Part shown: positions 1 to 27,284 of the stretch, in pieces | Position numbering within the stretch: position 1 is the stretch's first letter | Layout: each line of letters starts with the position of its first letter | Source of the DNA: Eledone cirrhosa | Lineage: Eukaryota | Length of the DNA stretch: 64,000 nucleotides | NCBI GenBank assembly: GCA_964016885.1 | Contig: OZ024743.1 | Span: 184,450,001-184,514,000, forward strand | Direction of reading: 5' to 3' | Made by a program: the position numbers and the translations under genes | Notes under the pieces: model-generated | The model's input: only the letters and a program-made list of their open reading frames with translations | Told to the model about the DNA's origin: nothing | The model's database searches: none

Positions 1-2905
1 AAAACAAAGGAATTCCCACAAGAAATCTACTTGGCAAGAGAACATCAATCGCCAAATAAACCTTCTCCGATCTGACATAGAAATTTTAAAAAACTATAAA
101 GTAGGTGAACATGTTAAACAAACTAAACTTAGAAAATTGAAAAGAAAGTACAGTATAAAACCAACAAGTGACATAGGCATGCTGATAGAAATAATCAAGC
201 AAAAAGTGTCGGCCAAAGCTGCTCGTATAAGGCGCTTTGAAAAACGATCTAGATTCTATAAGGACAATAATATGTTCAAAACCAACCAAAGAAACTTCTA
301 CAGAAAAATTGGTAAGTCAACAATAACTGCTAAATCAATACCACCCAAGGAGAAAGTGCAAGAATTCTGGGAAAAGATCTGGGCCGAAGAAAAAGTTCAT
401 AATATACATGCCCCATGGATAGACAGACAAATGAAAGATACAGCTCACCTTGAGGAACAAATATGGGAAAATATAACAGTTGAACAGTTGCGTTTGGCTC
501 TAAGAAAAACCAGCAAATGGAAATTCCCAGGAAAAGACAAAATACAAAATTTTTTGGATAAATGCCTTCACAGAGTCTCATGAGCTGTTAGCCCAACTTT
601 ACAATGAAATAGTTAAGGAGCCAGAAAAGATACCATCATGGCTAGTTAACGGCATTACATTCCTGCTTCCGAAGAATGATGAGACAAACAATCCCAAAAA
701 TTACAGACCGATAACTTGCTTGACCACAATGTATAAAATTTTAACATCAGTCCTAACTGAATATACATATGACCACCTGATAACAAATGACCTATTCCCC
801 ATTGAGCAGAAAGGGTGTAAACGAGGCTCATATGGCTGTAAGGATCAGCTTTTGGTTAACAAAATGATACTGGAAGATTGTCATAATATACACAAAAATC
901 TATCAATTGCTTGGATAGATTATAAAAAAGCATTCGATAGTTTGCCACACAGTTGGATTGAAAAATGTTTAGAGATTTTCAAAATATCCCCCGTTGTCAG
1001 GAGGTTTTTGTCATTCAGTATGAAGACATGGAAAACGACACTCCTTTTGAATAGTGAAACAAAATCACTGGAAGCTGGAGAAGTTAATATTAATTGTGGA
1101 ATTTTTCAGGGTGACTCTTTATGACCGCTTTTATTCTGCATCGCACTTATACCATTAAGTAAAATGCTCAATGAAACAAAACATGGATATAAAGTCTATG
1201 ACAAAACCATTAATCACTTGTTCTACATGGATGACCTGAAACTATTTGCAAAAAATGAAGAACAATTGCAGGGGCTATTATCCACTGTGGAGCAGTTCAG
1301 TGATGACATTAAAATGGAGTTTGGACTAGATAAATGCGCCAAAGCAACGTTCACCAGAGGAAAGCTGCTGAAAAGTTCAGACATTAATCTTGATCGAGGG
1401 AATGTGATAAGAGAACTTGATCAAGAGGAAACTTACAAATATCTAGGTGTTTGTGAAGGAGACGGAATCAAGCACTCGACAATGAGGGAAAGGATAAGGA
1501 AGGAATGTTACCGCAGAGTAAGAGCAATCTTAAGAACGGAATTGAATGCAAGGAATAGGATCGATGCCATAAACACGCTTGCCATACCAGTAGTAACCTA
1601 CAGTTACAATGTCATCAACTGGTCAAGCACAGAGATCCGTAGGCTCGATACAAAAATTCGAAAATTCTTAACCATGCACAGAATGCATCACCCTAAGGCA
1701 GATACAGATAGAATATATCTCCCTAGGAAAGAAGGGGGACGTGGGTTAATCCAGTTAGACATTGCGTTGAAAACTGCAACAATTGGATTATCTACATATC
1801 TAAGGGAATCACATGATTGGATGATCAAACTCGTTTTGAAACACGAAAGCATCAAAAGATCATACTCCATTACAAAAGATGCACAAAGATACAGTAATGG
1901 ACTACACATTTCAGAAGTCCCATTTACTGCTGAAATGGAAAACACAGAAAAAGCAAAGCAGGTAAAAGTAACTGCAAAGAAAGAACTGCTACAGAAACTG
2001 GCTAAGAAATGGCAAGAAAAGCCTCTGTATGGAAAATACCCAGAACGAGCTAACAATCCTGATGTTGACAAAACTTTAACCCATCAGTGGTTGGCATCCT
2101 CTGGACTGAAATCGGAGACTGAAGGACTGATTATATCAGCACAAGATCAGTGTCTGCCAACAAAAAATTACCAAGCCAACATAATAAAAAATGGATGCAG
2201 CCCATTATGCCGTGTATGTAAAAAACAACCAGAGACCATTGACCATATAATTTCAATGTGCAGTCCTATAGCTCCAACCGAATACCTAAACAGGCATGAC
2301 AGAGCTGCACAATACATACATTGGATAATGTGTAAGCATTTTGACCAACCCATCAAAAGAATTGGTGGGAGCATCAACCACCTCCCATACTTGAAAAAGA
2401 TCTTGTGGAACTTTAGCATCCAAACAGACCGAAAAATAGATGCAAATAGACCTGATATAATATTGAAGGACTTTAAAAAGAGGGTATGCCTGCTAATTGA
2501 TATGTCCGTTCCAATAGACAAGAATGTATCTATAAAAACATTTGAAAAATTGAGCAAGTATAAGGACCTGGAGATAGAAATTGGAAAAATGTGGAAATTG
2601 AGAACTAAAACAATACCAGTGGTTGTAGGCGCTCGAGGAATGATACCTAAGGGGTCTAATGATTACTTATCGCAAATCCCAGGAAACCCGCGTGTAGGAG
2701 AAATACAAAAGATAGTACTAATGGGAACTGCCCATATACTAAGGAAGATTCTGTCAATATAAGTACATCACAAGTCTAAACACTAAAGATGCATGTGTGA
2801 GTATGTATGTTCTTTCTTGAACATGGCGGACCTTGTTGTCTCTTGAGGTCACTGGTTGTGACTTGGTGATAACTCGTATGAACATAAAGCAAGATAAATG
2901 CAGCT

Positions 2906-2906
<1 letters not shown>
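1..2906 (+). mobile_element. R4/Dong-clade non-LTR retrotransposon (RT + CCHC + restriction-like endonuclease), degraded, 5' end outside window
   Basis: ORF pieces 137-583, 720-1124 and 1164-2762 carry EQKGCKRGSYGCKDQL, IDYKKAFDS, GIFQGDSL, HLFYMDDLKL, CRVC..ETIDHIISMC, RHD, RPDII and KYKDLEIEI. There is a frameshift near 560-580 and an in-frame TGA at 1122. The 3' UTR ends in (AAT)n. Confidence 0.92.
1164..2762 (+). pseudogene. C-terminal part of RT-RLE polyprotein of the R4/Dong element
   Basis: 532-aa ORF with YMDD RT motif, zinc knuckle and PD..D endonuclease motif. Confidence 0.88.

Positions 2907-2975
<69 letters not shown>
2907..2975. repeat. (AAT)n microsatellite joining the 3' ends of a Dong (+) and a Tx1 (-) element
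   Basis: Perfect AAT run. Confidence 0.98.
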
Positions 2976-5900
2976 GGATTTCTTTATTGGCCACAAGGGC
3001 TGACATCAAGAAAAACATTACAGACGGCACAGGACGGTACGATGTGGGTTTTGTGCGTGTAAATATTTTTATTATTTATATAAGAAAAGAAAAAAAGGAC
3101 ATAGAAACATATATATATATATAAACAATAAAAATGAAAATTGAAACAATGAAAAATTCCCCAATGGGGGGGGGGACCTCCGAGGGTTACCCGTGGCGAA
3201 AACCACACAAAAACCACGGCCACCCTGACCACCAGGGCAAGCGCCCTCTCTCAATTTTTCCATCTCTCAAACTACAGACGTATATTCAGAGTGGTTCCGT
3301 GCACTCGGTCCATTCTCGCTACATTCACCCACCTTTCAACAAACTTGCTAGAAGGCAGCACTTGCCTCTCCACCCTGATTTTCCTCTTCAAGTGAAACTT
3401 GAAAAAGTTAATTAGGGATTCGCCGAAGAGGAAAGTGTCTGTCTTTAACCCTTTTAACCTTGTCCACCACACAATCTCTTTCGCCATGGTCACCAGGCAG
3501 ATGAAAACCGCCTGCCCTTCCTCCTCGAAGGAAGACGGCGAGACCATCTGCACAATGGACTCAGTCGACAACCGGATCAGTCCTACACGCGACAGCAACT
3601 GTTCGACATAGCTCCACAAGTTAGCAATGCTCGGGCACTGAACGAGTGCATGCACGACGGTTTCGTCGCTCTGCACGCATCTCGGACAAGCTCGGCTGAC
3701 GGCACTTCCGTGCCTGTAGAGCTTATCTCGAACCGGCAGCGCTCCCCGGTAGCACTGCCAGGCCAGGGATTTTTGGAAGTTATCCATAGGCCTCGGGCTG
3801 AAAGTTCTCCAGAAGAGAGCAAACAGCTGATCTTCTTCAACACCCAGGATCTCTCCGAGAATGTCGTCGCTCTTCCCCTCCACTAGTCCTCTATAGAACG
3901 CCGAGGTGGATGTTCCACCGATACTGGTGCCCAGCTGGCAGAGGGCAGTGAGCTCCTGGAGACATTCCAGTTTCCAAGCGCTATCCCTCGGTCTTTTTCT
4001 GACCCAGGACTGCAGCTCCGTCAAGGAGACGAGCTGTGGGAAAACATGCCTGGCGAACAGCGACCACAATCAAGGGAGCACCAGAGATGTCGCAGCCTCA
4101 GCGCATGTTTGCGCATCATCAGCCATGGCATGCCCAGTCCTCCACGCAACGGGTGTTGACAGCAGATGGATCATCTGACCATGGGAGCGTGTCCATTCCA
4201 CAAAAAGCGGAAGAGGAGGCGCTCCATTTTGGTGAGAGTTGGGCTGGAGCAAGGGACGACGGTGAAGCGGTAGCAGATGACGGATGCGATGTACGCATTC
4301 GCCACCTCCGCCCGGCCTTTCAGGGACAGCTTCCTCTCGGCCCATTTCTGGGTGAGGGAGGCCACCCTGCTCGTCACCTCGTTCCAGTTTTTCTCCATCT
4401 GGAGGTCCGGTCCGAACCAGGCTCCGAGCAATTTAACTGGTCCCTCCGTCCAACGCCCCACGTCGCTGTCGGACGGCATGGACTTGCCTCTCCAGGTGCC
4501 GAGCTGCAAGCCCACCGACTTTTCCTGGTTTATCTTTGCTCCTGTCACCGTTTCGTATTCCTTGAGAGCGGTGCCGAGCATCTGGACGTGTCTGGTGCTC
4601 GACACCACCACGGTGACGTCGTCAGCGTAAGCCGACTCGGATTTCCCGCATCCTAGTTCGCGTGGGACGCCTCTCATCGCCCCCAGTTTGTGCAATAATG
4701 GCTCGAGAGCCAATACGTACAAGAGGGACGAGAGGGGACAACCCTGGCAGACTGAGCGCATGATGCTGAAAGGCTGCGACAGGTGACCGTTCACCCTCAC
4801 AACTGAGCAGATGTTGCTGTACATTGCTGCAATCCAACCCCTGAAAACGGGCCCGAAACCGGCTGCCTCGAGGACCGCCGCCAGGTACCGATGGTCGACT
4901 CTATCGAATGCTTTGGATTGATCCAAGTTGATCAGGGCCCCACCCGTGCTAGGTTCCTTAACCACCCTCTCTATGATTTATCGCATTAGGTGGAGGTTGT
5001 CGTGTATGGATCTGTCCGGAATGGTGCATATCTGCGCCTCTCCTACCAGTCCCTTGACGACAAGCGCCAACCTCGTTGCTAACACCTTGGCCAAAATCTT
5101 GAACTCTGCGTTTAGCAGGGTTATGGGCCTGAAATTATCGATAACATCCCCCTTGTTCGGGTCTTTTCTCAGCAGCGCCACTGCTCCCCGGCTCACAAAA
5201 CTGGGATCTCCCGATCTGCTGCCAGTTGCAGTAGATGTCTGCCAAGAGGTCACCGAACAAGTCTGGCATAAATGCATAAAGCTCGTAGGGCAGACCATCC
5301 AAACCTGGCGATTTACCCCTCGTGCAGTTAGCCATCGCTTCCCGTATTTCACCGGCTGTTATTGGCTTTACGCCACACTGTGCTGCGGTCGTCGAGAGCC
5401 GAGGCAGTCCGTCGAGGTATGCACTGAAGTCCATGCCCCGATCCGGGCCGCTGCCACTCCCGAACAGTTCAGCAAAGTGCTGCTGAAAAGCTTCACACAT
5501 CCGCTCAGGTTCGAGCATCACGCACCCGTTTTGGTCAGACAAAGACCGAATTGTGGCTTTGTTGCCACGACGCACCTCTGCCACCCGGGCCCATTGGATG
5601 GCTTTTGTCTCCTCATGTTTCAGAGCACGCGCTCTAGCTCTGACAACGCAGCCTTCGTGTTTTGCGTTAAAGAATTGGTCGAGTGCCAATCTCGCCGCAA
5701 GCACGTCGGTTGCGATGCCTGTCTGTCCTAAACGCCTCTTCTAGCTTTCTGACAAGCTCTCCCTCTACTCTATTTTCCTCTATCACTACTCCTTTGCTAA
5801 ACCTAATCGACTCTACTTTAATTGCCCTTTTCAGGGCGAACCACCACCTGTTGTTGACGACCGCTCCCGTCAACGCCCGCTTAACTAATACGCTAATCCG

Positions 5901-8536
5901 GTCTCTGTAGGCTTTGCGCGCCGGGAAAGACGCGTTCAGCTTCCAGTAACCGGGCCCTTGTCTATGAAGTCTGTCTATCTCGATATCACAGATCACAAAT
6001 TTGTGGTCTGTGTAGTCGACTATTTTAAATTGTGGACAACTTATACTAGCCTTATCTAGTTCTCTGCAGAATACCCTATCGAGATACGATCTGGATGACC
6101 CGATACGGTTTGTCCATGTCCACATTGGCACATTCGGGTGATCCAGTCGATACCTGTCAGACAGTTCAAAACGTCTGAGCAGGTTGGTGAGGCTCTTGCA
6201 CCCTCCTCCCCTATCCACTAGCCCCACACGATCCCAGCGTGCATCCAAGATACCGTTCCAGTCGCCCACTAACACTAAAGAGCGGGACGTTCCAAAAAAG
6301 GTCTCTAGACGTCTGAAGAAATCTGGCCGTCCTGCCCCTGTTGGGGCGTAGACGGCTACTAGCCTGAAAGCATTGCCTTTGCTGCCGGTCACGTCCAGTA
6401 CCACCGACTTACCTTCTGGGTCTAGGAAGATGGCCCGTATCGCGAAATCCAAGCCTCTCCAAAAAAGGACGGCAACCCCTCTCCCCCCCACCCGATCCTG
6501 GACGGCTGGGAGATGCGTATACATCATAGCCGCTGAAGATCGGTGCGAAGGCTCGTGCTTCGGAGATTCTGGTTTCACTGATGGCCACCACATCTATGTT
6601 TAGTGACCTGAGGTCGTTGAGCAGGTGACCCTGCTTCCAAGGCCACGTGCATTTATACTGCCTATTCTGAGTACGGCCATGTTGGATGAGAAACGGGGCA
6701 AGTGAGAAAGGGTCACTTACCTTGATCGTGTGGTGAAGGGACAGTAGAACCATCCCTTTCGCTGGTCATGGGTGTTTCCAAGAGGATGTCAGTGTATATC
6801 CGCTTGGTAACCGACCCTCTGAAGTCTCCAGCTGTGTTGGGGAATTTTTGTTTTAAAGGTTTGTATTGTTCTATTGAGATTTCGATGATGCTTATGTTTG
6901 TCGGGAGAGTTCTTGGTGTTGGTGGGGTGTAGAAGTTTTTTTCTGTGATGTCTGTGTGCTGCTTTATATTTGTATGAGTTCTTTTTTTGCCATGTTTATG
7001 GCTGTGTACTTTTTGGGGGGAGGGGGGATTTTGTTGCTGTTTTCTTCTTGTTGCTGTTTTCTTCTTGTTGCTGTTTGGTGTGTGTGTCTTGTTGTGTTTG
7101 CGTTGTTGGTGTTTTTGGTGATGCTGGTGGTGGTGTGGTTGTTGTCAGTGGTGCTTGTGGTGGTGATGGTGGTGGTGTTGCTGCAAGTTTCCTTGCTGCC
7201 TTTACCCCTCTTTGTATGCCTTCGCTTTTGGAGGGTAAATCTAAGGGTTTTTTCTTTTTTGTTTTTTGTGGCAGACCGTTTGCCACTTCACTCCCGCCTC
7301 AAACTCCATGTCGGATTCTGTGGCGTCTGGGAGGGGTATGTGCTCCACGGCTGTTGGTGGTGGTAGTGGAGCCCTCTTCGGCAATTTTGTTGCTGGTGTA
7401 GCTACTTCAAATGTAGCTATGGTGTTGCCGCCACTGATGATGCTGCTTTAGTTGTCCGTGGCCTTGGTACGGGTGCTACGGACGTTGCCCTCCTACTCAC
7501 CGTGGAAGGGGCTTCTTCGTTTGTTGCCTGCCCTGCTCTTGGTAGCAGCAGACCAGGTATTAGAAGGAGAGGGGCCTTCTTCTTCGCTGTCTTCTGCGGA
7601 CAAAAGGCCCTGAGGTGACTCTTTCACCCACAGAGATAACATTTTGGCCGTCTTCCTTCTACACTTATAGGGAGTTGGAGTCCTTCCTCGATGTCTATGA
7701 TATCGGGGATAGCGTCGATACATTCCTAGTCAGTTTGTATAAGCATTTGCATGCCTATACCTGACCAGTTCTCTTTCCCTATTTTTTCTACTTGCAGCAT
7801 GGTCGTCCTGTTCTCAATTCCAGCAAGGACAGACGCGGCCAGCCAAGGTATGGGCACGTCGGGTGGGACCTGGGTTACTTTGACCCTCACAATTTTCTGC
7901 CCGCAGTAGGAGGGCACTAAGACTATCTCCTCACTCTTTAGGGTTTCCAAAGAGTGAGACTTTGTTTCCTGGGGGGTGGCGAAAAGTACGTCTACTGTGG
8001 CATACTTTCTGCCTCGGGTGATGTGGGTTTTGCGTGCCCAGACGCACCCCAAGGCCTTTGGGATTTGAGCCTCCGTGGCTCTCTCCACCCGATGTGAGAT
8101 TTTGCTTACGGTGCGATGTGAGATTTTGTTCACCGTCCGTAGCTGCTGGTCCTTGAAAAAAAGCAGGTGGAGGTTTCAGGGAGACTCTATTTGCGCTTCT
8201 TGTCACCATGGCCCTTGTGACTGCCATCTCCTCCTCTGTGATTAACACTGTCTCGATATTTCGGGCGACACCTGCAAAAGAAGTGGTCCCTTTTTCAGCA
8301 GCACCACTATTGCTGCCACTACTGGTCTTACTGGTGGTGCTGAGATCGCTATTACAGGTATCGGTGTCATTGTTGTTGTTTTCGTTGGTACAGTTGTTGG
8401 TGTTGTTGTTGTTTTTGTTGATACTGTTGCAGTTGTTACTGTTATTGTGGCTGTTGTTATTATTGTTGTTTTTGTTGATACTGTTCCTACTATTATTGTT
8501 GTTGTGGCTGTTGTTATTGTCATTGTTATTGTCATT
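2976..8536 (-). mobile_element. Tx1/L1-clade LINE (ORF1 + APE-RT ORF2), frameshifted, 5' truncated
   Basis: APE motifs ISETR, VYAP, GDWN, YLDRVF, TDHK (about 6680-5670). RT motifs LDQSKAFDRVDH, QGCPLS, YADD (4965-4171). C-terminal CPRC..ETVVHALVQC (4069-3272). ORF1 remnants 8530-6780. AATAAA lies just before the (ATT)n tail. Confidence 0.9.
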
Positions 8537-8830
8537 GAGAAACTGTCCAAATATAAAGATCTAGAAATAGAAATAACCTGATTGTGGGTGTTGAAGACAG
8601 ATACAATACCTATAATTATAGGTGTCCTGGGAATTGTAAGAAAGCATGCAGACAGATACATAACCAAAACTCCAGGACTCACAAATATATACAACATACA
8701 AAACATATCACTACTAGGCATCACACACATATTACAAAGAGTATTCTCAAGACAATAGAACAAAAACCACACTGCACATACCCAAGGCACACAGAGCTGT
8801 GCTCGATAATGCAGTGATAACGCACAAAAT
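8537..8830 (+). mobile_element. 3' fragment of R4/Dong element (RLE end + 3' UTR)
   Basis: Translates EKLSKYKDLEIEIT...IPIIIGVLG...IQNISLLGITHIL, followed by a degenerate AAT tail. Confidence 0.82.
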
Positions 8831-8845
8831 AATGATAAGAATAAT

Positions 8846-8996
8846 GTTTCTACTTTTGGCTTTATTTTATCAACCCCATAAGGATGAAAGGCAACGTTAA
8901 CCTGACAGGATTTGAACTTAGAACGTAAAGAGCCATAACTCCTATGCTGCAAAGTATGGTGTCTGACGCTCTACAAATACTGCCAAACCACCACCT
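8846..8996 (-). mobile_element. tRNA-derived SINE (MetaSINE-like central domain)
   Basis: Reverse complement matches the copy at 35728-35912: A/B boxes and GCCTTTCATCCTTAYGGGGTYGATAAAA core. Confidence 0.8.
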
Positions 8997-9062
8997 TTAT
9001 AATGATAATAATAATAATAATTTAGCAGAGGATCATATGGATGCAAAGACCAGTTATCATTA

Positions 9063-10000
9063 TCTATAAAAGGCAGATTGTTGTTGTTGTGTGTGTGCAT
9101 GTTCCATGTTTATACATTTGCACAATTTCAAACCGATTCGACTCAAAGTCTGTAAGAATGTTGTAAATGGTCTAACTTAGGTCAACGACTATTCATTTCA
9201 TTCACACTCACCCATAATTACGGAAATAATCGATAAAACTAAATACATGACGCTGTACCCCTCTAATACAATCGGATTTCCTCTCTCTCTACTCCCCTTA
9301 AACTTTAAGAGAGAGAGAGAGAAAATGCTTGTTTTTGAGTGTGGAACGGTTAAACATTTATTTACTTCAATGACAAAGAGAACTTATTACATTTCATACG
9401 AAACAACAATTATTCAAAAGCAACAGATAAATTTATTCAACAACAAAAAAAATAGCGATAAATCTTTTTTAAAACATCTATCAACGAACGTGGAAGAAAG
9501 AAGTATCAGTTCATTTACTATACACAATAATATCCTCTATGTGGTCACTAAACCTGCTAGAAACAGCAGTTAATTCTCCCCCATATCATACCACTCCCTA
9601 CTGTCTTAAATTTAGAAAACATATCCTCTATGAGGTCACTAAACCTGCTAGAAACAGCAGCTAACTCTCCCCCATATCACCCCCCCCCCCCTACTGTCTT
9701 AAATTTAGAAAACACACATTAGACAACCATGCAGAACAACTCCATCGCAGCTCTGTTGTTCGGCTGTCATCGTCTACGTGTGTGTTGCGCAAGTAGTGTG
9801 AAACAATAAATTTCAACACTTCTTTGCACAGATATAATATCCATAGGCGAAACTACAATTGTCACTGCTGGCGCAGCTCTTGCTTCGGCAGTCCAGGTCA
9901 CCCAGTGCCTGGAAGACAAAAAAGTGCTGCCATAAAATGGGTAGTGCAACCTAATTTTGGTAACTTACTGACCCCGAGCAACGCCGGGCTTTAATGCTAG
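9063..10000 (+). mobile_element. Non-autonomous Helitron
   Basis: A|TC 5' end. The 3' end has a CCCGAGCAACGCCGGG hairpin followed by CTAG|T. Internal ~90-bp direct duplication at 9530-9712. Confidence 0.8.
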
Positions 10001-10956
10001 TTAATAGATAAAGCCATAACTGAAAACTGCAAAAGAAAAAATCAGCATGGTTTGGATTGACAAAAAAGAGTTTGACAGTGTTCCCCATACATGGATACTC
10101 AACACACTAGCCATGAGTAAAATATCAGCAAAAATAACATTTATCAAACATGCCATGAGTAAATGGCAATTCTGCTGTTACAAAGGATAAAACAATAAAA
10201 ACAGAGCCTATCCCAATGAACAGAGGCATATTTCAAGGAGACTTTTCTGCCTAGCATTAACACCACTAACTGAAATACTAAACAGAACTGGGTTAGGGTA
10301 TAAATGCTACATTGGAAAAATTAACCATCTCCTATATATGGATGATCTAAAGCTGTATGCTACAAAGGAAAAACAACTCCAAACACTGCTCCAAACTGTA
10401 CATGGATTCGCAAAAGAAATACGTACCAAGGCATCTCTGAAGAGTGGGGAAACTAGTGGAAAGCAATAATATCATGTTAGATAAAGAAACAGAAATAATA
10501 GAACTAGATCAAACTCAGACATACAAATACTTAGGAATCAACGAACTAGATGAAAGAAAAGATTAGAAAAGAATACTACATAAGAATTAGGTTAATACTC
10601 AAAACTAAACTAAATGCAAAGAATAAGGTGATTAGCATCAACACTTTAGCAATTCCAGTAATGAGCTACAGCATTAACATTCTGAATTATACTCTAAAAG
10701 ATCTAACTGGAATAGATAGAAAAACAAGAAAAATAATGACCGCATTTAGAAAGCACCATCCAAAATCAGACGTAGAAAGGGGCCTTATGCAACTAGAAAA
10801 CTCTTATAAAACTCTTATAAAATAACTACTGTAGGACTAAAAAAATACCTAATAAAAAACAAAGGAAAGTTAATACAAATAGCCACGAATCAGGAATAAA
10901 ACAAAAAGCTGTTCCCGGTCTTCAAAAAATTCAAACCAGAAATTGGACTAACAAAT

Positions 10957-11219
10957 TGTAGCAAGCTACTTTCCTATTTGTGCGTGATTTGGCTAAGTCA
11001 GGCCAATCGGGAGCCGCGCACGGATATATATTTCCAACTTCCACCTAAACAGAGATTTTCCCGCTTTCTGACATTGCCATATAACAAAACCGTTACATTT
11101 ATTGATATAACAAAACCATACCTTTCCGGCAACACAAATACACATTATTATTTTTTTTCTGTTATATTGGTGACCTCTGTTGATACAAATATTATTATCA
11201 TTATTAATCCTCTGCTACA
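10957..11219 (+). repeat. 5' LTR of non-autonomous LTR element
   Basis: TGTAGCA...TGCTACA inverted termini. Homologous to 12197-~12990. Confidence 0.82.
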
Positions 11220-11220
11220 A

Positions 11221-11236
11221 TGGTGACCCGAATGTG
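11221..11236 (+). promoter_or_regulatory. Primer-binding site resembling the tRNA-Trp complement
   Basis: TGGTGACCCGAATGTG lies 1 nt after the LTR end. The eukaryotic tRNA-Trp PBS is TGGTGACCCCGACGTG. Confidence 0.6.

Positions 11237-14324: not shown

Positions 14325-14390
<66 letters not shown>
14325..14390. repeat. (AAT)n microsatellite between tandem Dong copies
   Basis: Perfect AAT run. Confidence 0.98.
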
Positions 14391-15970: not shown

Positions 15971-15974
15971 TAAC

Positions 15975-16035
<61 letters not shown>
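15971..16035. repeat. (AAT)n microsatellite between tandem Dong copies
   Basis: AAT run. Confidence 0.98.
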
Positions 16036-16038
<3 letters not shown>

Positions 16039-19000
16039 TCTGGAACGAGATTGGTTTATTTAAATTAGATGAACAAAAATTGGCCGGGCAGGCTCGGGTA
16101 ATAAGAACTAATGGGTGGATAAGCGAGCTGGAACTGGAGGAACTGAGCAGAGAGAATGGCTTGGAGATGGCGGGTGTAGTATGCCAGACAAGCGAGCCGG
16201 CGGGAAATGAAGGTGAGGAGGTCCTGAGAACGGAGGAACCACCCGAAGCAGACAATGATCTGAATACTGAGATAAATAATACCTGGAACAGAGATACGGC
16301 CACTGAGGAGATGAATGCTGACGGGCTAGGACAAGATTCGGTTGACATCCTAAATTTAGTGGTAGATGAGTTGAACAATGATAGTGGGAGACCTATGAAC
16401 CTAAGATTTGTAGACAGGAAAAAGTTAAAAGAAACAACAGCTAAGGTAAACAAAGTCATCCCATACCTTGAGGCGAGGAGTCTTCACCAGTGCAACAATA
16501 TCCTCAAAGCAACAGCAAATACGGTGAGGAAACTACTTGGTATAAAAGCGAGAGGAAACAACAGACAAGAAAGAGCAGAGCCGTGGTGGAAGAAGCGACT
16601 GAGTGGGCAAATCGGGGAAATGAGAAATGACATAGGAAAGCTTGAGTCACTACTGAATGGGACACTAAAAAACATAGGCACTAAAAATAGACTGGAAATA
16701 AAATACAAAACTAGGAGTAAAAAGCTAAATATTATCATAGAGGAATTGAAGCAACGCATTGTAGCAAAGAGTGCCAAAATCAGGCGATACGAGAACAGAG
16801 TCAGTCAGTATAAACAGAACCGCATGTTCGACAACAACCAGAAGATGCTGTTTGGACAGCTTGAGGGGAAAGAAAGAGGCAACGACTTGATCCCTGGGGC
16901 GGAACAAGCTAAAACATTCTGGAGAGGAATATGGGAGCAGGATGTTAGACACAATGCCCAGGCAGGGTGGATTGAGACAGTACAGAAGGAGATCGGTGAG
17001 CAGGCACAACAACAGACTGATTTGAGTATCACAGTTGAAACTCTTAAGGGGCAAGCCAAAAAACTAACCAACTGGAAATCACCAGGCCCAGATGGTGTGC
17101 AGGGGTATTGGATTAAACATTTAACATCCCTCCACCCGAAGCTGACGGCCATGTTCAATGACTGCTTGGTGTCGGGTGAGGCGCCAGAGTGGTTGACAAA
17201 AGGTACCACAGTTCTGATAATGAAAGACCGAATCAAGGGTAATGATGTTACCAACTATAGACCTATCACATGTCTGCCCGTAATGTGGAAACTGTTGACG
17301 AGCATTGTGTCTGAGGAAATCTACCATCACCTCCACACAAACAACTTGTTACCGGACGAACAGAAAGGATGCCGAAAGAAGTCACGTGGTACAAAGGACC
17401 AGTTGCTTATTGATAAGATGGTAATGGGGAATTGCAGGAGGAGACACACTGATCTTGCCATGGGATGGATAGACTACAGAAAGGCATTTGACATGGTGCC
17501 TCATTCCTGGATCACCAAAAGCCTGGAGATCTTCAGGGTGGCAGATAACATCAGACAGTTGCTGGGCAGGAGTATGGGGTCCTGGGAGACAGAGTTGACA
17601 TCAACTGGAGTATCCTTGGAAAGCGTGAAGATCAAGAGAGGTATCTTCCAGGGAGATAGCCTGTCCCCTCTGTTGTTTGTCCTTGCCCTGATGCCCTTGA
17701 CCATTATGCTGCGAAAAGTGAGAGCAGGATACAAGTTGGGAAGGGGAGAGCTTACCATCAATCACCTCCTCTTCATGGACGATCTTAAGCTCTTCGGGAA
17801 AAGTGAGAAGGAGTTGGATGTGCTTGTTGACACTGTCCGTATTTTCAGCAATGATATATGTATGCAGTTTGGTATTGGTAAATGTGGAGTCATTGTGATG
17901 AGGAGGGGTAGGTTGAGCAGAAGTAACGGGATCCAGATACCAACAGGTGAGATGATAAAGGAAATTGACTCTGAGGAAGGATACAAGTATTTGGGCGTTC
18001 TGGAGGCTGATGGCATAAAGAACAAAAAAATGAAGGAATTGTTAAGAACTGAATACATTCGGAGAGTAAGGAGCGTATTGAAGTCACATCTGAACAGCAG
18101 AAATGCCATAAGCGCAGTAAATTCCCGAGCTGTGTCTATTATTAGATACAGTGCGGGAATTCTGAGATGGAATGTTGCTGAACAAAAAGAAATGGATAGG
18201 AAGACTAGGAAGCTATTGACTATCTACAACATGTTCCACAAGAGGAGTGATGTCGATAGACTCTACCTAAGGAGATCTGAGGGTGGAAGAGGTCTTATCA
18301 GCATAGAGGACTGTGTTCAGATGGAGAAAAACAACCTATACAAATACGTGACCTATAGTAAGGAGCCAATGCTCAGAGCTGTACTGAAGGAGGGGACAGT
18401 AGGCCAGGGGATATCCAAGGAGGAAATAACATCAAGGAGGAAGAGCAGCCTTAAGGGAAAATCCCTTCATAGTACCTTCTTTGAGAAAACTGAATTTAGA
18501 GATCCACAGACATGGAACTGGTTGAGAAGAGGAGACCTCAAAAAGGCTACAGAAGGAATGCTAATGGCTGCGCAGGAGCAGGCCCTCAAAACGAAGTGGT
18601 TGAAGCACCATATCTACAAGGAGGAGGCTAGCCCACTGTGCAGGATCTGTGGAGAGAGAGAGGAGACTGTGGCTCACATTGTGTCCGAGTGTAAACACCT
18701 AGCCCAGACCCACTATAAGGGCTGGAGACACGATGTGATGGGCAGGGTGATCCACTGGTACCTGTGCAAAGTAAACAATCTACCACATTCTGAGAAATGG
18801 TATGAGCATAGGCCAGAGGCGGTGATGGAGAACAGTCAGGTGAAGGTGCTGTGGAATTTTAGGATACAGACGGACAAAAAACTGGAACACAATAGACCTG
18901 ACCTGGTGGTTGTGGACAAAGAAAAAAGATCGTGCCTGATTGTGGATGTGGCCTGCCCGTTCGACACGAGAGTGCAAGAGAAGGAGAGGGAGAAAATTAA

Positions 19001-19286
19001 CCGATACCAGGACCTAAAGTGGGAGGTGAAAAGGATTTGGAACTGCCATGAAGTCAAAGTGATCCCGATTGTCATAGGCGCACTGGGGACTATCTCCAAA
19101 GGTTTCCAGGGATGGTTAAAGAAAATCGGCCCCTTCACGCTTTTTGGAACGCTTCAAAAGGCATGCTTGCTTGGAACGGCAAGAACCCTCCGATACGTCC
19201 TGAATATCTGAGGCTGCAGGTAGTGGCTTGATATTCAATCCAACGGACTTTCCAGTTAACCAACATCAATGACTGAGATTCAAGGA
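16036..19286 (+). mobile_element. R4/Dong family B, near full-length young copy
   Basis: Single uninterrupted ORF flanked by (AAT)n on both sides. Confidence 0.95.
16080..19211 (+). CDS. RT-RLE polyprotein of R4/Dong element (1043 aa; true N-terminus probably truncated)
   Basis: WKSPGPDG, NYRPITCL, EQKGC, IDYRKAFDMVPH, GIFQGDSLSPLLF, HLLFMDDLKL, CRICGEREETVAHIVSEC, RHD, RPDLVVVD..DVACP, RYQDL. The frame is open upstream to the AAT run (IWNEIGLFKLDEQKL) and the listed start is TTG. Confidence 0.92.
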   Translation: MAGQARVIRTNGWISELELEELSRENGLEMAGVVCQTSEPAGNEGEEVLRTEEPPEADNDLNTEINNTWNRDTATEEMNADGLGQDSVDILNLVVDELNNDSGRPMNLRFVDRKKLKETTAKVNKVIPYLEARSLHQCNNILKATANTVRKLLGIKARGNNRQERAEPWWKKRLSGQIGEMRNDIGKLESLLNGTLKNIGTKNRLEIKYKTRSKKLNIIIEELKQRIVAKSAKIRRYENRVSQYKQNRMFDNNQKMLFGQLEGKERGNDLIPGAEQAKTFWRGIWEQDVRHNAQAGWIETVQKEIGEQAQQQTDLSITVETLKGQAKKLTNWKSPGPDGVQGYWIKHLTSLHPKLTAMFNDCLVSGEAPEWLTKGTTVLIMKDRIKGNDVTNYRPITCLPVMWKLLTSIVSEEIYHHLHTNNLLPDEQKGCRKKSRGTKDQLLIDKMVMGNCRRRHTDLAMGWIDYRKAFDMVPHSWITKSLEIFRVADNIRQLLGRSMGSWETELTSTGVSLESVKIKRGIFQGDSLSPLLFVLALMPLTIMLRKVRAGYKLGRGELTINHLLFMDDLKLFGKSEKELDVLVDTVRIFSNDICMQFGIGKCGVIVMRRGRLSRSNGIQIPTGEMIKEIDSEEGYKYLGVLEADGIKNKKMKELLRTEYIRRVRSVLKSHLNSRNAISAVNSRAVSIIRYSAGILRWNVAEQKEMDRKTRKLLTIYNMFHKRSDVDRLYLRRSEGGRGLISIEDCVQMEKNNLYKYVTYSKEPMLRAVLKEGTVGQGISKEEITSRRKSSLKGKSLHSTFFEKTEFRDPQTWNWLRRGDLKKATEGMLMAAQEQALKTKWLKHHIYKEEASPLCRICGEREETVAHIVSECKHLAQTHYKGWRHDVMGRVIHWYLCKVNNLPHSEKWYEHRPEAVMENSQVKVLWNFRIQTDKKLEHNRPDLVVVDKEKRSCLIVDVACPFDTRVQEKEREKINRYQDLKWEVKRIWNCHEVKVIPIVIGALGTISKGFQGWLKKIGPFTLFGTLQKACLLGTARTLRYVLNI

Positions 19287-19315
19287 ATAACAATAACAAT
19301 AATAATAATAATAAT

Positions 19316-20110
19316 TGACTCGTAATTATCAGGCCAATGTGATGAGAAACGGAATAAACCCAAAGTGCCGATTCTGCAATGCTGAGGTTGAAACAGTAGA
19401 TCACTTAGTCTCTGGATGTAAAGTTTTAGCACTAGTAGAATACAAATATAGACATGACAGAGTCGGCCAATATCTACACTGGGTAATATGTCGGCATTAC
19501 AAAATCAAAGCTGAAGACAAGTGGTACAATCATCACCCTGAGGCTGTAACTGAAGGAGAAAAAGTAACAATTCTCTGGGACTTTCCTGTACATACTGACA
19601 GGACCATAAAAGCAAATAGACTACATCATTGTAAAAGATCAACATAACAAGGTCTGTTTATTGATAGATATGAGCATCCCATGTGATCACAATATCGGGG
19701 CAAAAGAATTTGACAAGCTACGAAAATATAAAGATCTGCTTATTGAAATTGAGAAAATGTGGCACCTCAAGGCCGTTACAATACCAGTAATTGTGGGAGG
19801 ACTGGTAATGATCAAAAAAGGAACAGAACAATATTTGCGAATGATTCCTGGTTTACCCTCTCTGCACGGGGTGCAAAAAAATGTTTTGACTGGTACTCCA
19901 CACGTATTGAGAAGAGCACTTTCTCTGTAAGATTGATATCCCTCCTTGTATTTACTTATGCATATGCATATGTGTATATATGTATACTGTTTTTTTTGTT
20001 TTGTTTTTTATTATAATCAATGTGCTGTATTAACTGGCTTACCAATGCACACTGTGAATTTATTTGCCCTAGGTGTCAGGAAGACACTCGGCATATATCT
20101 CAGAAACAAT
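19316..20110 (+). mobile_element. R4/Dong element of another family, 5'-truncated and frameshifted
   Basis: TRNYQAN..CRFCNAEVETVDHLVSGC..RHD..LWDFPVHTDRTIKANR, IDMSIP..KYKDL. Flanked by AAT runs at 19287-19315 and 20127-20159. Confidence 0.88.
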
Positions 20111-22257
20111 AATGAAAGTAAATAAAAATAATAATAATAATAATAATAATGATAATAATGCTTTCTTTATTAACCACAAGGGTTTACATAAAGTAGACAT
20201 TAAGGACAGTACAGGACAATACAGGACGGTACAAATGGGCATTTCTGCGTGTAAAAAACAAAAACAGAGGATGTAACAAAAAAATAACAATGAAAAATTC
20301 CCCAATACGGAAGAGACTTCCGAGGGACATTCGTGGAGAAAGCCCATTAAAAAGCCACAGTGATCCTGACTACCAGGGCAAGTGCCCTCTCCCAGTTTTC
20401 CACCTTTAATTTACAGACACATACTCACTCGGGTCATTCTTGCCTCTCTCACCCATCTTTCAAAAAAATGGTGGGAAGAGAGCACTTCCCTCTACCCTGA
20501 TTTTCCTTTTCAAATGAAATTTGAAAAAGGTAATCAGGGCATCACCGAAGAGGTAAGTGCTCGTCTTCAGCCCTTTCAAACGTGTCCACCATACTATCTT
20601 TTTCGCCATGGCCACCAGACAGATAAAAACTGCCTGCCCTTCCCGGCTAAAGGAAGAGGGCGGGGCAATCCTCACGGTGGACTCAGCTGATAGCTGGATC
20701 CGTCCTACATGCGACAGCAAGTGTTCGACATAGACCCACAAGTCAGCAATGCTCGGACAATGGACGAGTGCGTGCAGGACGGTTTCGTCGCCCTGCGCGC
20801 ATCTCGGACATGCCTGGCTGACGGCACCTCCATGCCTGTAGAGTTTATCCCGAACCCGAACTGGCAAAACTCCTCGGTAGCACTGCCAGGACAGGGGTTT
20901 CTGGAAGTTGTCCATAGGGCCCGGCCCGAAAGTTCTTCCGAAGAGATTGGCTAGTTGATTTTCGTCGACGCCTAGAGTTTCCCCAAGTACGTCGTCGCTC
21001 TTCCCCTCCACTAATCCTCTATAGAACGCCAAGGTGGAGTTTCCACCGATCACATTGCCCGATTGGTCGAGGGCTGTGAGCGCCTGAAGACATTCCAGTC
21101 TCCAAGCGCTCCCTCTCGGTCTTCGCTTGACTCAGGACTGCAGCTCCGTCAAGGAGATGAGCTGGGGAAAGACGCATCTAGCAAACGGCGACCACACCTG
21201 ATCACCGTCGAGGAAGAGGTGGAGATGTCGTAGCCTGAGCGCGTGTCTGCGCATCATCAGCCACGGCATGCCCTGCCCTCCACGTAGCGGGTGTTGACAG
21301 CAGATGGACCACCTGACCATCGGAGCGCGTCTTTTCCACAAAAAGCGAAAGAGCAAACGCTCCAGCGCAGTCAGGCGGGGCTTAGGACAAGGTACGACGG
21401 TCAGGCGGTAGTAGATGACGGACACGATGTACGCGTTAGCCACCTCCGCTCAACCTTTCAGGGATAGCTTCCTCTCCGCCCATTTCTGGGTGAGAGAAGC
21501 CACTCTGCTCGTCACCTCGTCCCAGAATTTGTCCGTCTGGAGGTCCGGACCGAACCAGACCCCTAGCAATTTAACCGGTCCGTCCGTCCAGCGCCCGACG
21601 ACGCTGTTGGACGGCATGGACCTGCCTCTCCAGGTGCCGAGCTGCAGGCCCACTGACTTTTCCTCGTTGATCATTGCTCCTGTCACCGCTTCGTATTCTC
21701 TTAGTGTAGTGCCGATCGCCTCGATGTGTTTGGTGTTCGACACCACTACGGTGACATCGTCCGCATATGCTGACACGGATCTTCCGCATCCTAGTTCGCG
21801 CGGGATCCCCCTCAATGTCTCCAGTTTGTGCAGTAATGGCTCGAGAGTCAATACGTACAAGAGGGACGAGAGAGGACATCCTAGGGATGTTGAACGTTCC
21901 GAAAGGTGACCGTTCACTCTCACCACAAAGCAGATGTCGCTGTGCATGGCAGCGATCCAGCCTCTGAAGACGGGCCAAAAGCCAGCCGCCCTCAGGACTG
22001 CCGCTAGGTAACGATGGTCGACCCTATCGAAAGCTTTCAACTGATCTAAATTGATGACGGACCCACCCATGCCAGCTTCCCTAGCTACCCTCTCTACGAT
22101 GTATCGCATGAGGTGGAGGTTGTCGTGGATGGATCTGTCGGGAATGGCGCATGTCTGCGCCTCTCCCACCAGACCACCAACGACAAACGCCAACCTCTTT
22201 GCTAGCACCTTGGTCAAAATCTTGAACTCTGTGTTTAGCAGAGTTATGGGCCTGGAA

Positions 22258-23763
22258 TTATCTGTTATCCCCCTTGTTCGGATCCTTTCTCAGCAGCGCC
22301 ATCGCTCCTCCGCTCACAGAGCTGGGAATTCTCCCGTTCTGTTGCCAGTTGCAGTAGACGTCCGCCAAGAGGCCTCCGAACAAGTCTGGCATATGTACGT
22401 AAAGTTCATAGGGCAGACCATCCAAACCAGGCGATTTACCCCTTGTGCAGCCAGTCATTGCCTCCCGTATTTCAGCGGTTGTTATCGGCTTTTCGCAACA
22501 CTCCGCCTCAGTGGCCGAAAGCCGCGGCAGTCCGTTGAGGTAGACACTAAAGTCCATCCCTAGATCCGGCTCGCCGCTGCCCTCGAACAGCTGAGCGAAG
22601 TGTCGCTGAAAAGCTTCACACATTTGCCCGGGATCGAGTAGCATGCGCCCTTCGTGGTCCACCAAAGATCGGATCGTAGCTTTGTTGCCACGACGCGCCT
22701 CCGCCACTCGGGCCCATTGAACGGCTTTCGTCCCCTCGTGTCTGAGAGCACGCACCCTAGCTATGACCACGCAGCCTTCGTGCTTTGCATTGAAGAATTG
22801 GTCAAGGGCCAATTTCGCCACAAGTACGTTGGTCGCGATCCTTTTGCTAAGCGCCTCGTCTAATTTTCTAACTAGTTCTCCCTCTGCTCTATTTTTCTCT
22901 AGAGCTAAAGCCTTACTAAACCTAATCGACTCTATTCTAATTGCTCTTTTCAGAGCAAACCACCACTTGTTGTTGACGATGGCTCCCGTCAACGCCCGCT
23001 TAACTAGTTCGCTAATCCGGTCTCTGTAGGCCTTGCGCGCTGGTAAGGACGCGTTTAGCTTCCAGTAGCCGGGTCCTCGTCTATGAAGCCTATCTAACTC
23101 AAGCACACAGATCACGAATTTGTGGTCCGTGTAGCTGACTATCTTGAATTGTGGACAGCCTATGCTAGACCTATCTATTTCCCTACAAAATACTCTATCT
23201 AGATATGATCTGGATGACCCGATGCGGTTTGTCCAAGTCCACATTGACACATTCGGGAAATCCAATCGGTACTTGTCAGACAGTTCAAAACGCCTGAGCA
23301 GGTTGGTGAGGCTCTTGCACCCTCCTCCCCTATCGGCTAATCCCACAGAGTCCCAGCGTGCATCTAAGATCCCGTTCCAGTCGCCCACTAACACTAAAGA
23401 GCAGGACGTTCCAAGAAAGGTCTCCAGACGCCGGAAGAAATTAGGCCGCCCTGCTCCTGTTGGGGCATAGACGGCCACTAGCCTGAAAGCTTGCCCGTCT
23501 CCGCTGGTCACGTCTAGCACCACCAACTTACCTTCTGGGTCCAGGAAGATGGCCCGTATGGCGAGATCCAAACCTCTCCGAAAAAGCACAGCAACTCCTT
23601 CCCCCGATCCAGGACGGCTGGGAGATGCGTACACATCGTAGCCGCCGAAGATCGATGCGAAGGCCCGTGCTTCGGAGATTCTGGTCTCGCTGATGGCCAC
23701 TACATCTATGTTTAGTGACCTGAGGTCGTTGAGCAGGTGGCCCTGCTTCCATGACGACCCCAA
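22258..23763 (-). pseudogene. Tx1 ORF2 apurinic endonuclease + linker
   Basis: ISETR, VYAPTG, GDWN, YLDRVF, TDHK, GPGYWKLN, KSPGLDGLPYELY. Confidence 0.88.
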
Positions 23764-24377
23764 GCCATGCGCATTTATGCTGCGATTCTAAGTGAGGTCA
23801 TGTTGAAATGGAGTGGAAAAGATGGGAAAGACCACTTACCTTACTTCTCGTAGAGGAAGGATGGTTTCTCCATCCTGTTCACTGCTTGTGGCCTCCTCAG
23901 GAAGGATGTCCTTATAAATCCTCCTGGGGAGTGCTTGTCGAAAGTCTCCGATGTCTTTGGGGAATTTTTGTTTTAGTGCCGTTTACGTTTTCTGTGTGAT
24001 GCGAGTGATTTGTATGTGTGGAGGTGGTGTGAATTTTTGGGGTGTTATGTAGTCTTTTTCTATGATGCTGGTGTTGTGTTGGATGTAGTGTAATAATTGG
24101 TTGTTGTTCAAATTTAATGCTGTGTAGTGTGTATCGTTTTGGTTGTTTTGTTTTGTTTGCGTTTGTTGTGGGTTTGTTTCTGTTTCGCTTTTTGGTGACT
24201 TTTGTGGTGTTGGTGATGGTGGTGTTGGGGTTAATGATGGTGATGGTATTGGTGTTTGTGGTAATGGGGTTGGTGATGCTGGTGTGGATGGTGGCCTAGC
24301 TTTCCTAACTTTTTTGTTTGATAGTTTATTTGTTTCCCTCTGTATTTTGTTTTTGGAGGGGGAAGGAAGAGGATTTT

Positions 24378-25740
24378 TTATTTTTTGGCTTCTTTTTCTT
24401 TTTTATTTTTTCCTGATACCGTTTCCCACTCCTCGTCGTCACAATCTGACTCCAGTTGCGATAGGTCGGGGAGTGGAAAATCCTCCACAGGCGTTGGTTT
24501 TGGTTGTGGCGTGATGGATGGTGTAGGCGCTGGTGCTAGTTCTGGCGTGTTGGGTGGTGGTGGTTTTGCTACTGTTGCTGCTACAGTTGCTTCTGTTGTT
24601 GCTGCCATTTCTGCTGCTGGTGGTGTTGATGGTTGAGTCACTGTGGTGGGTAAGAGAGGTGGCCTCAACTTTTTAGCCTGAGGGCAGAAAGCCCTTAGGT
24701 GGGTTCCTTCACCACAAACGACACACCTAGACCTTCTGCCCTCGATGATTACGGTGAGGTGGCTGCCGTCAGTGAGGTCTATTGCCTCTGGGATCTCCTC
24801 AATGCTTTTTTGGTCCGCTTGGATCAGGAGCTCCATCCCAGATCCGGACCAGTTCTCCTGCTTTTCCTTTGCTATTTCGATTATCTTGGTGTTGGCCTCG
24901 ATGCCGGCGAGGACGGCAGCCATTAGCCAGGGAATTTCGATGGCCGGTGGAACATGGGTCACCCTGATCTTCACGAGTCTCTGGTCACAATAGCTTGGGA
25001 CGAGTGTGAAGTCGTCGCTTCTTAATAGGGCCATGGAGTGCTCTCTGGTCTCCTGTGGTGTTCCAAAGAACACGTCCACGGTTCCATATTTCTTCCCACG
25101 TCTTATGTGGGTTTTTTTCGCCCACACATGTCCCAAAGCTTTTTGGATTTGGGCCTCGAATGCCCGTTCAGTCGGCGCGATTTTATGTTAATCGTCCGAT
25201 AAGACACGGTGCATAGGCGCCGATGCTCCATTTTATTAGGTGAAGGGTGAGGCTGACCCTGTACCCATCTTTCTTTACCATTCTCTTGGCTTCATCTAAT
25301 TCCTCCTGAGTTACCTGGATTGCTTCGCATTTTTTGGCTGCTTTGGCAAACGACACGGTGTTGATGTTTTTGTTGTTATTCTCATTGTTGTTGTTGCTGT
25401 TGTTGTTATTGTTGTTATTGTTATTTTTAGTTTTAGTTGTGGTGGTGGTGGCATCAGTGGTGTTCGGTGTGGAAAAGTCGATTCTGGGTGAATCCATTTC
25501 GATGTCACGAGATAATTTATTTTTTTCTTTTGTTTCTGTTGTCGCTGTGGTGGTGGTGGGGGTGGCGGCTTCAACACCTGCAGTCATTGGTAAAGGCGGG
25601 AAATGAATGTCTGCATGGGACAAATTTAAATTATTGCTACTGCTTATATTTTTAGTGTTGGCAAACGTAGTAATATTTACAATGGTGGTGTCGGTGTGAG
25701 GTGTTAGATTGTGAGCAAGGTGTGGCTGTGAGTCGTCCAT
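24378..25740 (-). pseudogene. Tx1 ORF1 (gag-like, CCHC zinc knuckle), frameshifted
   Basis: ORFs 25740-25183 and 25136-24378. SFAKAAK motif, CX2CX4HX4C knuckle and Pro/Thr-rich tail. Confidence 0.8.
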
Positions 25741-25953
25741 GATATTTCAAAGAAATTTTTTGTTTGATAATTATAAAAGTTTAAATTTTGGGCTCAAGGC
25801 CCCAATCTTTTTGAGTGTCATTTTCCGAAAGCAAATTTTGTGACCTTATAAACAGTTAACAACAAAAATTTTCCATAAATGGCAATTTTAAACAAACGAA
25901 AACAACAAACCTTTGCGGAGCTCACGATAATACGATTTCCTACGTAGGTCGCC

Positions 25954-26007
<54 letters not shown>

Positions 26008-26011
26008 TAAT
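25954..26011. repeat. (AAT)n microsatellite at the Tx1 5' flank, also the tail of the adjacent SINE
   Basis: AAT run. Confidence 0.97.
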
Positions 26012-26149
26012 TATTTCTACTATAGGCACAAGGCTTGCAATGTGCAGGGAGGGGAAAGTCGATTAAACTATTACTTGTACTTTGTTATTTCAACCTCTTA
26101 AAGATGAAAGGCAAAGCTAATCTTGGCGGAATTTGAATTCAGAACGTAA
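26012..26149 (-). mobile_element. Diverged SINE copy
   Basis: TTTCTACTATAGGCACAAGGC...GATGAAAGGCAAAG...GGCGGAATTTGAATTCAGAACGTAA. Confidence 0.75.
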
Positions 26150-27100: not shown

Positions 27101-27196
27101 AAAACAGGAGAGAGGGAGTGGTCCGGCGTGCTGGTGTTGAGGGGTTCCACCATGTAGATTATCCAACAGTCAATTGTATAAATAACCCACCTTTAC

Positions 27197-27201
<5 letters not shown>

Positions 27202-27284
<83 letters not shown>

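Follow-up and report, generated by a model that had tools for sequence, protein, structure and literature searches.

Background

Retrotransposons of the Dong type, members of the R4 clade, insert into (TAA)n repeats in most insects, molluscs, and cnidarians (PMC7998251; PMC3812793; PMC3774820; these and the other papers cited are covered here in part, and statements drawn from them are limited to those parts). The present analysis concerns a 26-kb chain of 11 top-level retrotransposon pieces, mostly joined by AAT repeats, within a 64-kb stretch of the genome of Eledone cirrhosa (contig OZ024743.1, positions 184,450,001 to 184,514,000; hereafter the window), in which Dong-type elements lie on one strand and other long interspersed elements (LINEs), of the L1/Tx1 type, lie with short interspersed elements (SINEs) at the junctions on the other. 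Two LINE families likewise share one target in the (TTAGG)n repeats of Bombyx, which TRAS and SART enter in opposite directions, forming arrays (PMC10088271; PMC7265360), and in U2 small nuclear RNA genes, which serve both Keno, a Tx1-clade element with an apurinic-type endonuclease (APE), and Utopia, an element with a restriction-like endonuclease (RLE) (PMC4640811). Kibi, Koshi, and crocodilian Tx1 elements prefer microsatellites, namely (TC)n, (TTC)n, (TTCC)n, and (TTTC)n, a Tx1 family being counted as microsatellite-specific when more than 20% of its flanks carry the repeat, and SINEU shares its target preference with Tx1-Mar, the Tx1 family proposed to mobilise it (PMC4494074). In Octopus vulgaris, Dong-R4, L1-Tx1, RTE, and SINEs have recently been active (PMC13282606; PMC8967140; PMC9115989), SINEs make up ~11.6% of the genome, and 288 hotspots of transposable elements (TEs) have been mapped, with no mechanism given in the part of that paper covered here (PMC13282606).

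Nothing essential in the plus-strand elements of the window differs from known Dong elements (Bombyx Dong, DongAg, snail DongBg, and ostracod Dong), but the present chain combines four or more Dong lineages, whose tracts appear to be shared with APE-type elements. TRAS and SART are both R1-clade APE elements with a telomeric target, whereas this locus combines an RLE type and an APE type at an internal microsatellite. Keno and Utopia target a gene and have identical 3′ flanks, which give them the same orientation; here the orientations are opposite and the tails would regenerate the target. For the Kibi/Koshi type, the covered part of PMC4494074 names no (ATT)n or (AAT)n target, and the preference at this locus looks looser. 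SINEU and Tx1-Mar share the Mariner transposon as target, while here the SINE is linked to the LINE by ~24 terminal 3′ bases in common and by an ATT tail. Each ingredient of a hotspot served by two machines has a precedent, and the finding is largely explained. A literature search gave no report of an (ATT)n-inserting Tx1 element or of tract sharing between Dong and Tx1, within a scope beyond which Repbase, Kojima and Fujiwara 2004, Ohshima and Okada 1994, figures, and supplements could hold one.

Results and discussion

A polarised chain of retrotransposon pieces

The window DNA is eukaryotic and repeat-rich over the whole 64 kb. The chain within it is real, and runs in the order D1 (+), Tx1a (−), D2 (+), SINE (−), D3 (+), D4 (+), D5 (+), D6 (+), D7 (+), Tx1b (−), and SINE (−) (Table 1); because D1 begins to the left of the window, the length of the chain is at least 26 kb. 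An AAT tract was found at eight of the ten top-level junctions, and all eight junctions that the initial annotation had named as AAT runs were confirmed as AAT tracts on the plus strand. The two exceptions, Tx1a/D2 (8533/8534) and D3/D4 (13821/13822), are probably traces of deletions. The orientations it had given were also recovered, with seven of seven Dong/R4-type pieces placed on the plus strand by tblastn and both Tx1-type LINEs and both junction SINEs (4/4) on the minus strand. That every Dong-type element ends in (AAT)n holds for six of the seven, the exception being D3, of which the 3′ end is missing and which shows no AAT at its junction with D4. D3 is also broken by a Helitron-like and a long terminal repeat (LTR)-like insertion, both with junctions that lack AAT. 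The minus-strand polarity of the SINEs applies to the junction copies, while a third SINE in the span (12759-12878) lies on the plus strand with ATT on its own sense strand. The ends by which the stretch 9063-10000 was labelled are presumably Helitron hallmarks. Within the LTR-like element are TGGTGACC, which resembles a primer site, and a tandem repeat of ~40 bp (11671-11899).

All eight perfect (AAT)≥3 runs on the plus strand of the window, two of which belong to a single tract, lie inside 2908-26011. The span 1-26149 contains seven (AAT)≥5 runs and one (ATT)≥5 run, compared with none and one in the remaining 38 kb, and 200 first-order Markov resamples of the span produced neither, ruling out a chance origin of the AAT runs. 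In A/T-only tracts of at least 20 bases in 1-26200, TAAT outnumbered ATTA by 91 to 3. An Rfam scan of the span returned low-complexity matches only, and there was no read-derived contig across 16040-25950, so that contiguity rests on the assembly.

Table 1 Features of the AAT-joined chain, in window coordinates
Feature	Position	Strand	Description	Basis or context
D1	1-2906	+	Dong/R4-type RLE LINE carrying stops and frameshifts; begins left of window; AAT end	tblastn 32-41% to D6; RVT_1
Tract	2907-2975	+	(AAT)23	Tail-to-tail junction D1/Tx1a
Tx1a	2976-8533	−	L1/Tx1-type APE LINE, frameshifted; (ATT)n 3′ tail	Exo_endo_phos, RVT_1, zf-RVT
D2	8534-8827	+	Dong-type 3′ fragment; 5′ junction without AAT	
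Tract	8828-8847	+	Degenerate AAT with ATAATGATAA, left copy of duplication-like 10-mer	
SINE	8848-8998	−	Head nearly complete, deleted internally; flanked by ATT tracts in own sense	
Tract	8999-9021	+	AAT beginning with ATAATGATAA, right copy	Head-to-head junction SINE/D3
D3	9022-13821	+	Decayed, 5′-truncated Dong-type, twice interrupted; 3′ end missing	tblastn pieces 10001-10819, 13093-13731
Insertion in D3	9063-10000 (start approximate)	+	Helitron-like (5′ TC, 3′ hairpin and CTAG)	Dong frame resumes at 10001; no library test
Insertion in D3	10957 to ~12990	+	Non-autonomous, LTR-like	TGTAGCA...TGCTACA repeat 10957-11219, second copy from 12197
SINE	12759-12878	+	5′-truncated, (ATT)5 tail, in second LTR-like repeat copy	Pairwise alignment
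D4	13822-14324	+	3′ fragment, ~87% nucleotide identity to D5/D6; 5′ junction without AAT	
Tract	14325-14390	+	(AAT)22	Between D4 and D5
D5	14391-15968	+	Young, 5′-truncated Dong copy, open frame	
Tract	15969-16036	+	(AAT)~22	Between D5 and D6
D6	16037-19285	+	Young Dong copy, 1057-aa open frame	Reverse transcriptase, CCHC, RHD, PD..D..K
Tract	19286-19315	+	AAC/AAT	Between D6 and D7
D7	19316-20108	+	5′-truncated Dong-type fragment, distant lineage	
Tract	20109-20159	+	AAT, impure at left	Tail-to-tail junction D7/Tx1b
Tx1b	20160-25953	−	Apparently full-length L1/Tx1-type LINE; ATT on both sides	ORF2 APE-RT-zf, frameshifted
Tract	25954-26011	+	(AAT)19	Tx1b 5′ flank and next SINE's 3′ tail
SINE	26012-26149	−	5′-truncated, ATT tail; 5′ side without clear ATT tract	

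Dong-type elements target the repeat

D6 contains a single open reading frame (ORF) with a reverse transcriptase (RT; RVT_1) and a C-terminal CCHC motif and PD..D..K endonuclease, without an APE, which is the layout of the R4/Dong clade. Residues C868, C871, H880, C885, R897-H898-D899, P954-D955, D970, and K986 were invariant across 19 sequences, and the best solved relatives were R2 proteins (E 9e-31, compared with 3e-14 for L1). By its predicted domains D6 is an RLE element, and it is Dong-like by its TAA target, the assignment being made from domain layout and target together; an ESM Atlas search returned RT families only, with no clade names. Other marks of the R4/Dong clade are a divergent Myb-like domain at the N terminus and an HDV-like ribozyme at the 5′ end. 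The 5′ ends are missing in all Dong copies of the window, and D6 lacks ~83 N-terminal residues when compared with P0002. In a quick tree the Dong pieces split into D1, D7, D2/D3, and D4/D5/D6, which makes at least four lineages.

Within the window, AAT lies directly 5′ of D3, D5, D6, and D7, four of the six visible 5′ junctions. For comparison with relatives, 14 loci were taken from a genome_contigs scan (eukaryote-like contigs in bacterial metagenome-assembled genomes) and more were then added from the same assemblies, giving 42 pieces in 37 loci, and of these pieces nine were set aside (three at contig ends, six near full length) and 33 were scored. The initial annotation had called for AAT enrichment at 5′ flanks, and in the Dong relatives this was borne out, since (AAT)≥3 occurred at 10 of the 33 alignment starts and (ATT)≥3 at one, against 115 of 8206 background windows. 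In assembly G001, which holds 69 Dong-type matches, the 3′ flanks of relatives were AAT-rich in 15 of 29 cases and carried ATT in one, and a truncated Dong-type copy at locus L009 has AAT on both sides. Because AAT stands at the 5′ truncation points of Dong relatives and on both sides of the L009 copy, the repeat is the Dong target and not merely a tail. Nor are AAT-joined chains peculiar to this window, as an independent tandem chain in G001 (L007, 515-10800) contains at least three Dong-type copies with short AAT tracts between them. The Dong half of the hotspot is supported, is already known biology, and is ordinary by itself. Three loci of another assembly (L010, L011, and L014 in G003) hold tandem arrays of another RLE-type element without AAT tracts. 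Viral contigs scanned with Dong and Tx1 protein queries, plus SINE/Tx1 3′ patterns, gave no match.

The two young copies, D5 and D6, differ in 22 of 1581 columns (98.6% alike) and have unequal 5′ start points, which ruled out D5 as a whole-unit duplicate of D6. The letters of D5 at four listed variable sites are those of the population majority at three, and the most fitting reading is that D5 and D6 belong to one young subfamily and inserted separately. Their similarity also bears on another account of the chain, namely passive accumulation in a repeat-dense neutral region combined with local duplication or allelic mis-assembly. This would suit the repeat content of the whole window, the likeness of D5 to D6, and the lack of a read-derived contig across 16040-25950, and Octopus vulgaris has many TE hotspots (PMC13282606). 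It does not account for the single orientation rule followed by eleven copies, the differing 5′ ends of D5 and D6, the four or more Dong lineages among the pieces, or the same kind of AAT-joined chain in unrelated data (L007), and we regard it as very improbable.

L1/Tx1-type LINEs and a SINE with a similar 3′ end

Both minus-strand LINEs have an ORF1 and an ORF2 with APE, RT, and C-terminal zinc finger (Pfam), the layout of the L1 group, and a profile of the LINE (A3) matched human L1 ORF2p at E 8e-103 compared with 5e-39 for R2. Judged from their sequence, these LINEs are L1-group elements, with Tx1 as a provisional clade label. A CCHC zinc knuckle in ORF1 is a feature of the Tx1 clade, and the Tx1b ORF1 (translation of 24381-25187) contains one C-x2-C-x4-H-x4-C knuckle, with no Pfam zinc-knuckle match at E ≤ 5. 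Tx1a and Tx1b share 78% nucleotide identity over 4.3 kb. Their nearest named relative is a protein of Argonauta hians (69% identity over 276 residues), which groups with both in a quick tree (SH-aLRT 100), and with midpoint rooting the lineage falls on the same side of the tree as loci with (TCT)n and (AT)n tails. The 5′ end of Tx1a is lost within the Asn-rich region of ORF1. Asn-rich stretches made from AAC/AAT repeats are present in both Tx1 ORF1s (8370-8532 and 25359-25429, minus strand) and would give Dong a possible target inside the element; it is exactly there that Tx1a is broken.

A wider comparison took in the best 80 of 206 metagenome relatives of the L1/Tx1 type, at 24–44% identity, 19 of which were placed in the tree. 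L1/Tx1-like pieces in G001 and G002 are distant, and an ATT tract near one of them (L121) lies well upstream. At L122 (2344-2403), a distant L1/Tx1-like piece is followed by (AAT)20 in its own sense, and (TCT)n, (ATC)n, or (AT)n follows, again on the sense strand, at the 3′ ends of L090, L063, and L033, showing that the L1/Tx1-like group has acquired microsatellite tails on repeated occasions. The window also holds a third, distant Tx1-like ORF1 fragment (26682-27113, plus strand, 26% to Tx1b ORF1), followed by (TC)47 at 27202-27296, and (TC)n is a repeat targeted by Kibi/Koshi-type elements.

The initial annotation had spoken of three unrelated types of element, which is probably wrong, as the last ~24 bases of the SINE resemble those of the LINE. 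When the last 24 bases of the LINEs were scored against six SINE 3′ ends, scores this high were reached by just 4 and 19 of 17850 null windows, and seven control ends from Dong and RTE elements all fell below zero; in an unanchored test over 40 bases the signal was weaker (34 and 143 of 9584). LINE and SINE carry the same ATT tail as well. The SINE is likely, if not certainly, the LINE's passenger, and because the ~24 terminal bases are common to both, two machines are likely rather than three types. The SINE label itself rests on repeated copies, size, and tail, a search of the copies for tRNA (Rfam, E ≤ 1) having given no match. We take this SINE to be a common octopus repeat; a motif search of papers did not identify it. 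Its 3′ pattern, shared with Tx1, matched none of the 179 collected loci, and the covered parts of PMC4758252 and PMC3531059 name no partner LINE for an octopus SINE.

Possible insertion of the LINE and SINE at the repeat

That an APE LINE and a SINE share the AAT tract in opposite orientation to Dong is partly supported, by a few junctions of one window plus one read joint. Both tracts flanking SINE 8848-8998 contain ATAATGATAA, G interruption included, which is the pattern expected of a target duplication. The insertion point of SINE 12759-12878 corresponds to (ATT)3 in the first LTR-like repeat copy, and this SINE faces against the chain, in keeping with the ATT rule. Tx1b has ATT on both sides, but its 5′ tract doubles as the tail of the next SINE. 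Among the window SINE copies, ATT-bearing A/T sequence lies 5′ in five of seven (by eye) and an AAT run in none, and repeat-bearing Tx1 flanks amount to one of the two window copies plus the read joint. In this joint, from sequencing run X24, Tx1 is cut at 22640 and continues through an AAT run into Dong near 19138, head to head (134 reads, one start); it is among those listed in a read comparison that skipped 269 letters at repeats and set aside 142 joints and 89 loose ends there. Large loose read ends at 18994–18995 and 22799, which lie at AATT sites, were dismissed as library chimeras.

Both LINE families were high-copy in runs X1 and X24, with pieces in runs bearing two other organism labels, and in both the read depth climbs toward the 3′ end, as expected from 5′ truncation. 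For 16040-25950, 20 runs from 15 studies, under many organism labels, hold 10-65% of the sampled words. In both LINE families, pieces from runs X5 and X7 agree at 96-99%, so that several organism labels have these families in common.

Farther along the window, at 39500-64000, (TA)n tracts join SINE copies and Helitron-like pieces to LINE pieces that bear an RT and end in (GAT)n. The (GAT)n-tailed pieces are presumably RTE-like, and one of them (54982-56073) carries a PHD finger. The (TA)n tracts of this second cluster are polarised on the plus strand (TAAT 97, ATTA 9); three of three SINEs lie on the minus strand, and the eight GAT-tailed ends run both ways (3 +, 5 −). A single polarised tract may have grown into this cluster as a hotspot, or sequencing bias may have produced the pattern. 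Before it, at 27300-31080 on the minus strand, lies a broken LTR-retrotransposon-like element with DUF7047 and RVT_3 matches and a gag/pol-like layout by eye.

The three tail-to-tail junctions (2907, 8828, and 20109) are explained by ATT tails and Dong targeting alone. This agrees with a simpler reading, in which ATT is a 3′ tail made at AT-rich sites without repeat preference and Dong alone targets the tracts, giving tail-to-tail polarity; Tx1a and two SINEs without 5′ ATT tracts fit it, the Tx1b/SINE junction may be a template switch, and microsatellite tails without targeting have been described for RTE (PMC9115989). The ATAATGATAA duplication, the (ATT)3 site, the Tx1b flanks, the read joint, and the polarity of the second cluster need more than this. 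Tails alone leave unexplained the head-to-head tract 8999-9021 with the second copy of the 10-mer, the SINE located at the paralogous (ATT)3, the head-to-head joint in the reads, and three SINEs that all face the minus strand in a TAAT-polarised cluster, and we consider such a reading unlikely. The long ATT on both sides of Tx1b could instead point to a strictly (ATT)n-specific LINE like Kibi and Koshi, with a sequence-specific APE whose nicks are confined to the AAT strand. Tx1 families specific for microsatellites are on record (PMC4494074), and the tree places this lineage on the same side as loci with microsatellite tails. If the same enzyme serves the SINE, however, its sites are loose, comprising (TA)n with single ATT units and, in one case, a 3-base ATT only, and of the two LINE copies seen one has no 5′ tract; so strict a specificity seems decidedly unlikely.

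A probable target-regenerating hotspot

We think it reasonably probable that the chain is a target-regenerating AAT hotspot served by two machines, Dong on one strand and the ATT-tailed LINE with its likely partner SINE on the other. The hotspot would have begun as an (AAT)n microsatellite that grew into a nested chain by repeated target-primed insertion. Each Dong insertion, with AAT in the sense direction, would end up with AAT on either flank and so turn one tract into two, a pattern visible at this locus with a mechanism taken from the literature. At least four Dong lineages would have used the site at different times, with the oldest, broken copies now outside and the youngest, open-frame copies D5 and D6 inside. 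To judge by a few junctions, the APE LINE would prefer ATT-containing AT-rich sites, loosely, and its protein would likely mobilise the SINE too, by way of the common ~24 terminal bases and the ATT tail. Orientation may be set by pairing between tail and primer, in that priming of an AAU-tailed RNA would require a nick in the ATT strand, and priming of an AUU-tailed RNA one in the AAT strand; annealing of RNA to target repeats has been proposed for SART1 (PMC7265360). Because each tail would pair with only one repeat strand, the two machines would face opposite ways in one tract, and if base pairing between each RNA tail and the nicked primer is required, two strand-specific nucleases need not be invoked to explain the opposite orientation. 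The ATT tails would also seed new tracts for Dong. The Helitron-like and LTR-like insertions and the two probable deletions would be later events, outside the orientation rule. The initial annotation had proposed that each insertion regenerates a target shared by both kinds of element; this stands for Dong, with AAT 5′ of truncated copies here and in relatives and with the L007 chain, while sharing by the APE LINE and SINE rests on few junctions.

A number of observations weigh against the two-machine hotspot. On the Dong side, the 5′ junctions of D2 and D4 lack AAT, a minority letter at 18683 is common to D5 and D6, 23 of the 33 relatives' starts are without AAT (many of them alignment breaks rather than true ends), and 14 of the 29 3′ ends scored negative. 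On the other strand, the 5′ junction of Tx1a has no ATT, SINEs 26012-26149 and 35729-35902 have no ATT tract on the 5′ side, and the Tx1b/SINE junction could be a single template-switch event. The end shared by LINE and SINE is short (~24 bases) and AT-rich, and no significant conserved fold was found in it (z −0.4 to −1.8). The X24 joint has a single start, two bases from a restriction-cut pile-up, without the cut-site letters, and was weighed lightly. None of the 80 distant L1/Tx1 loci carried AAT or ATT tracts of at least five units; as none of the 19 placed in the tree falls in the Tx1a/b lineage, this null result is no test of that lineage.

A wider proposal is possible, if rather doubtful, namely that octopods hold an undescribed (ATT)n-inserting Tx1 lineage that drives a SINE among the most abundant they have, and that its two-strand loop with Dong, each tail making the other's target, builds polarised chains of many kilobases and may underlie many cephalopod TE hotspots, with 39.5–64 kb of the window as a (TA)n counterpart involving RTE. 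If true, this would give a common SINE its autonomous partner and a rule for its insertion, extend the known Tx1 targets by (ATT)n, and provide an easy way to tell whether the orientation of LINEs is set by RNA-tail pairing or by the endonuclease.

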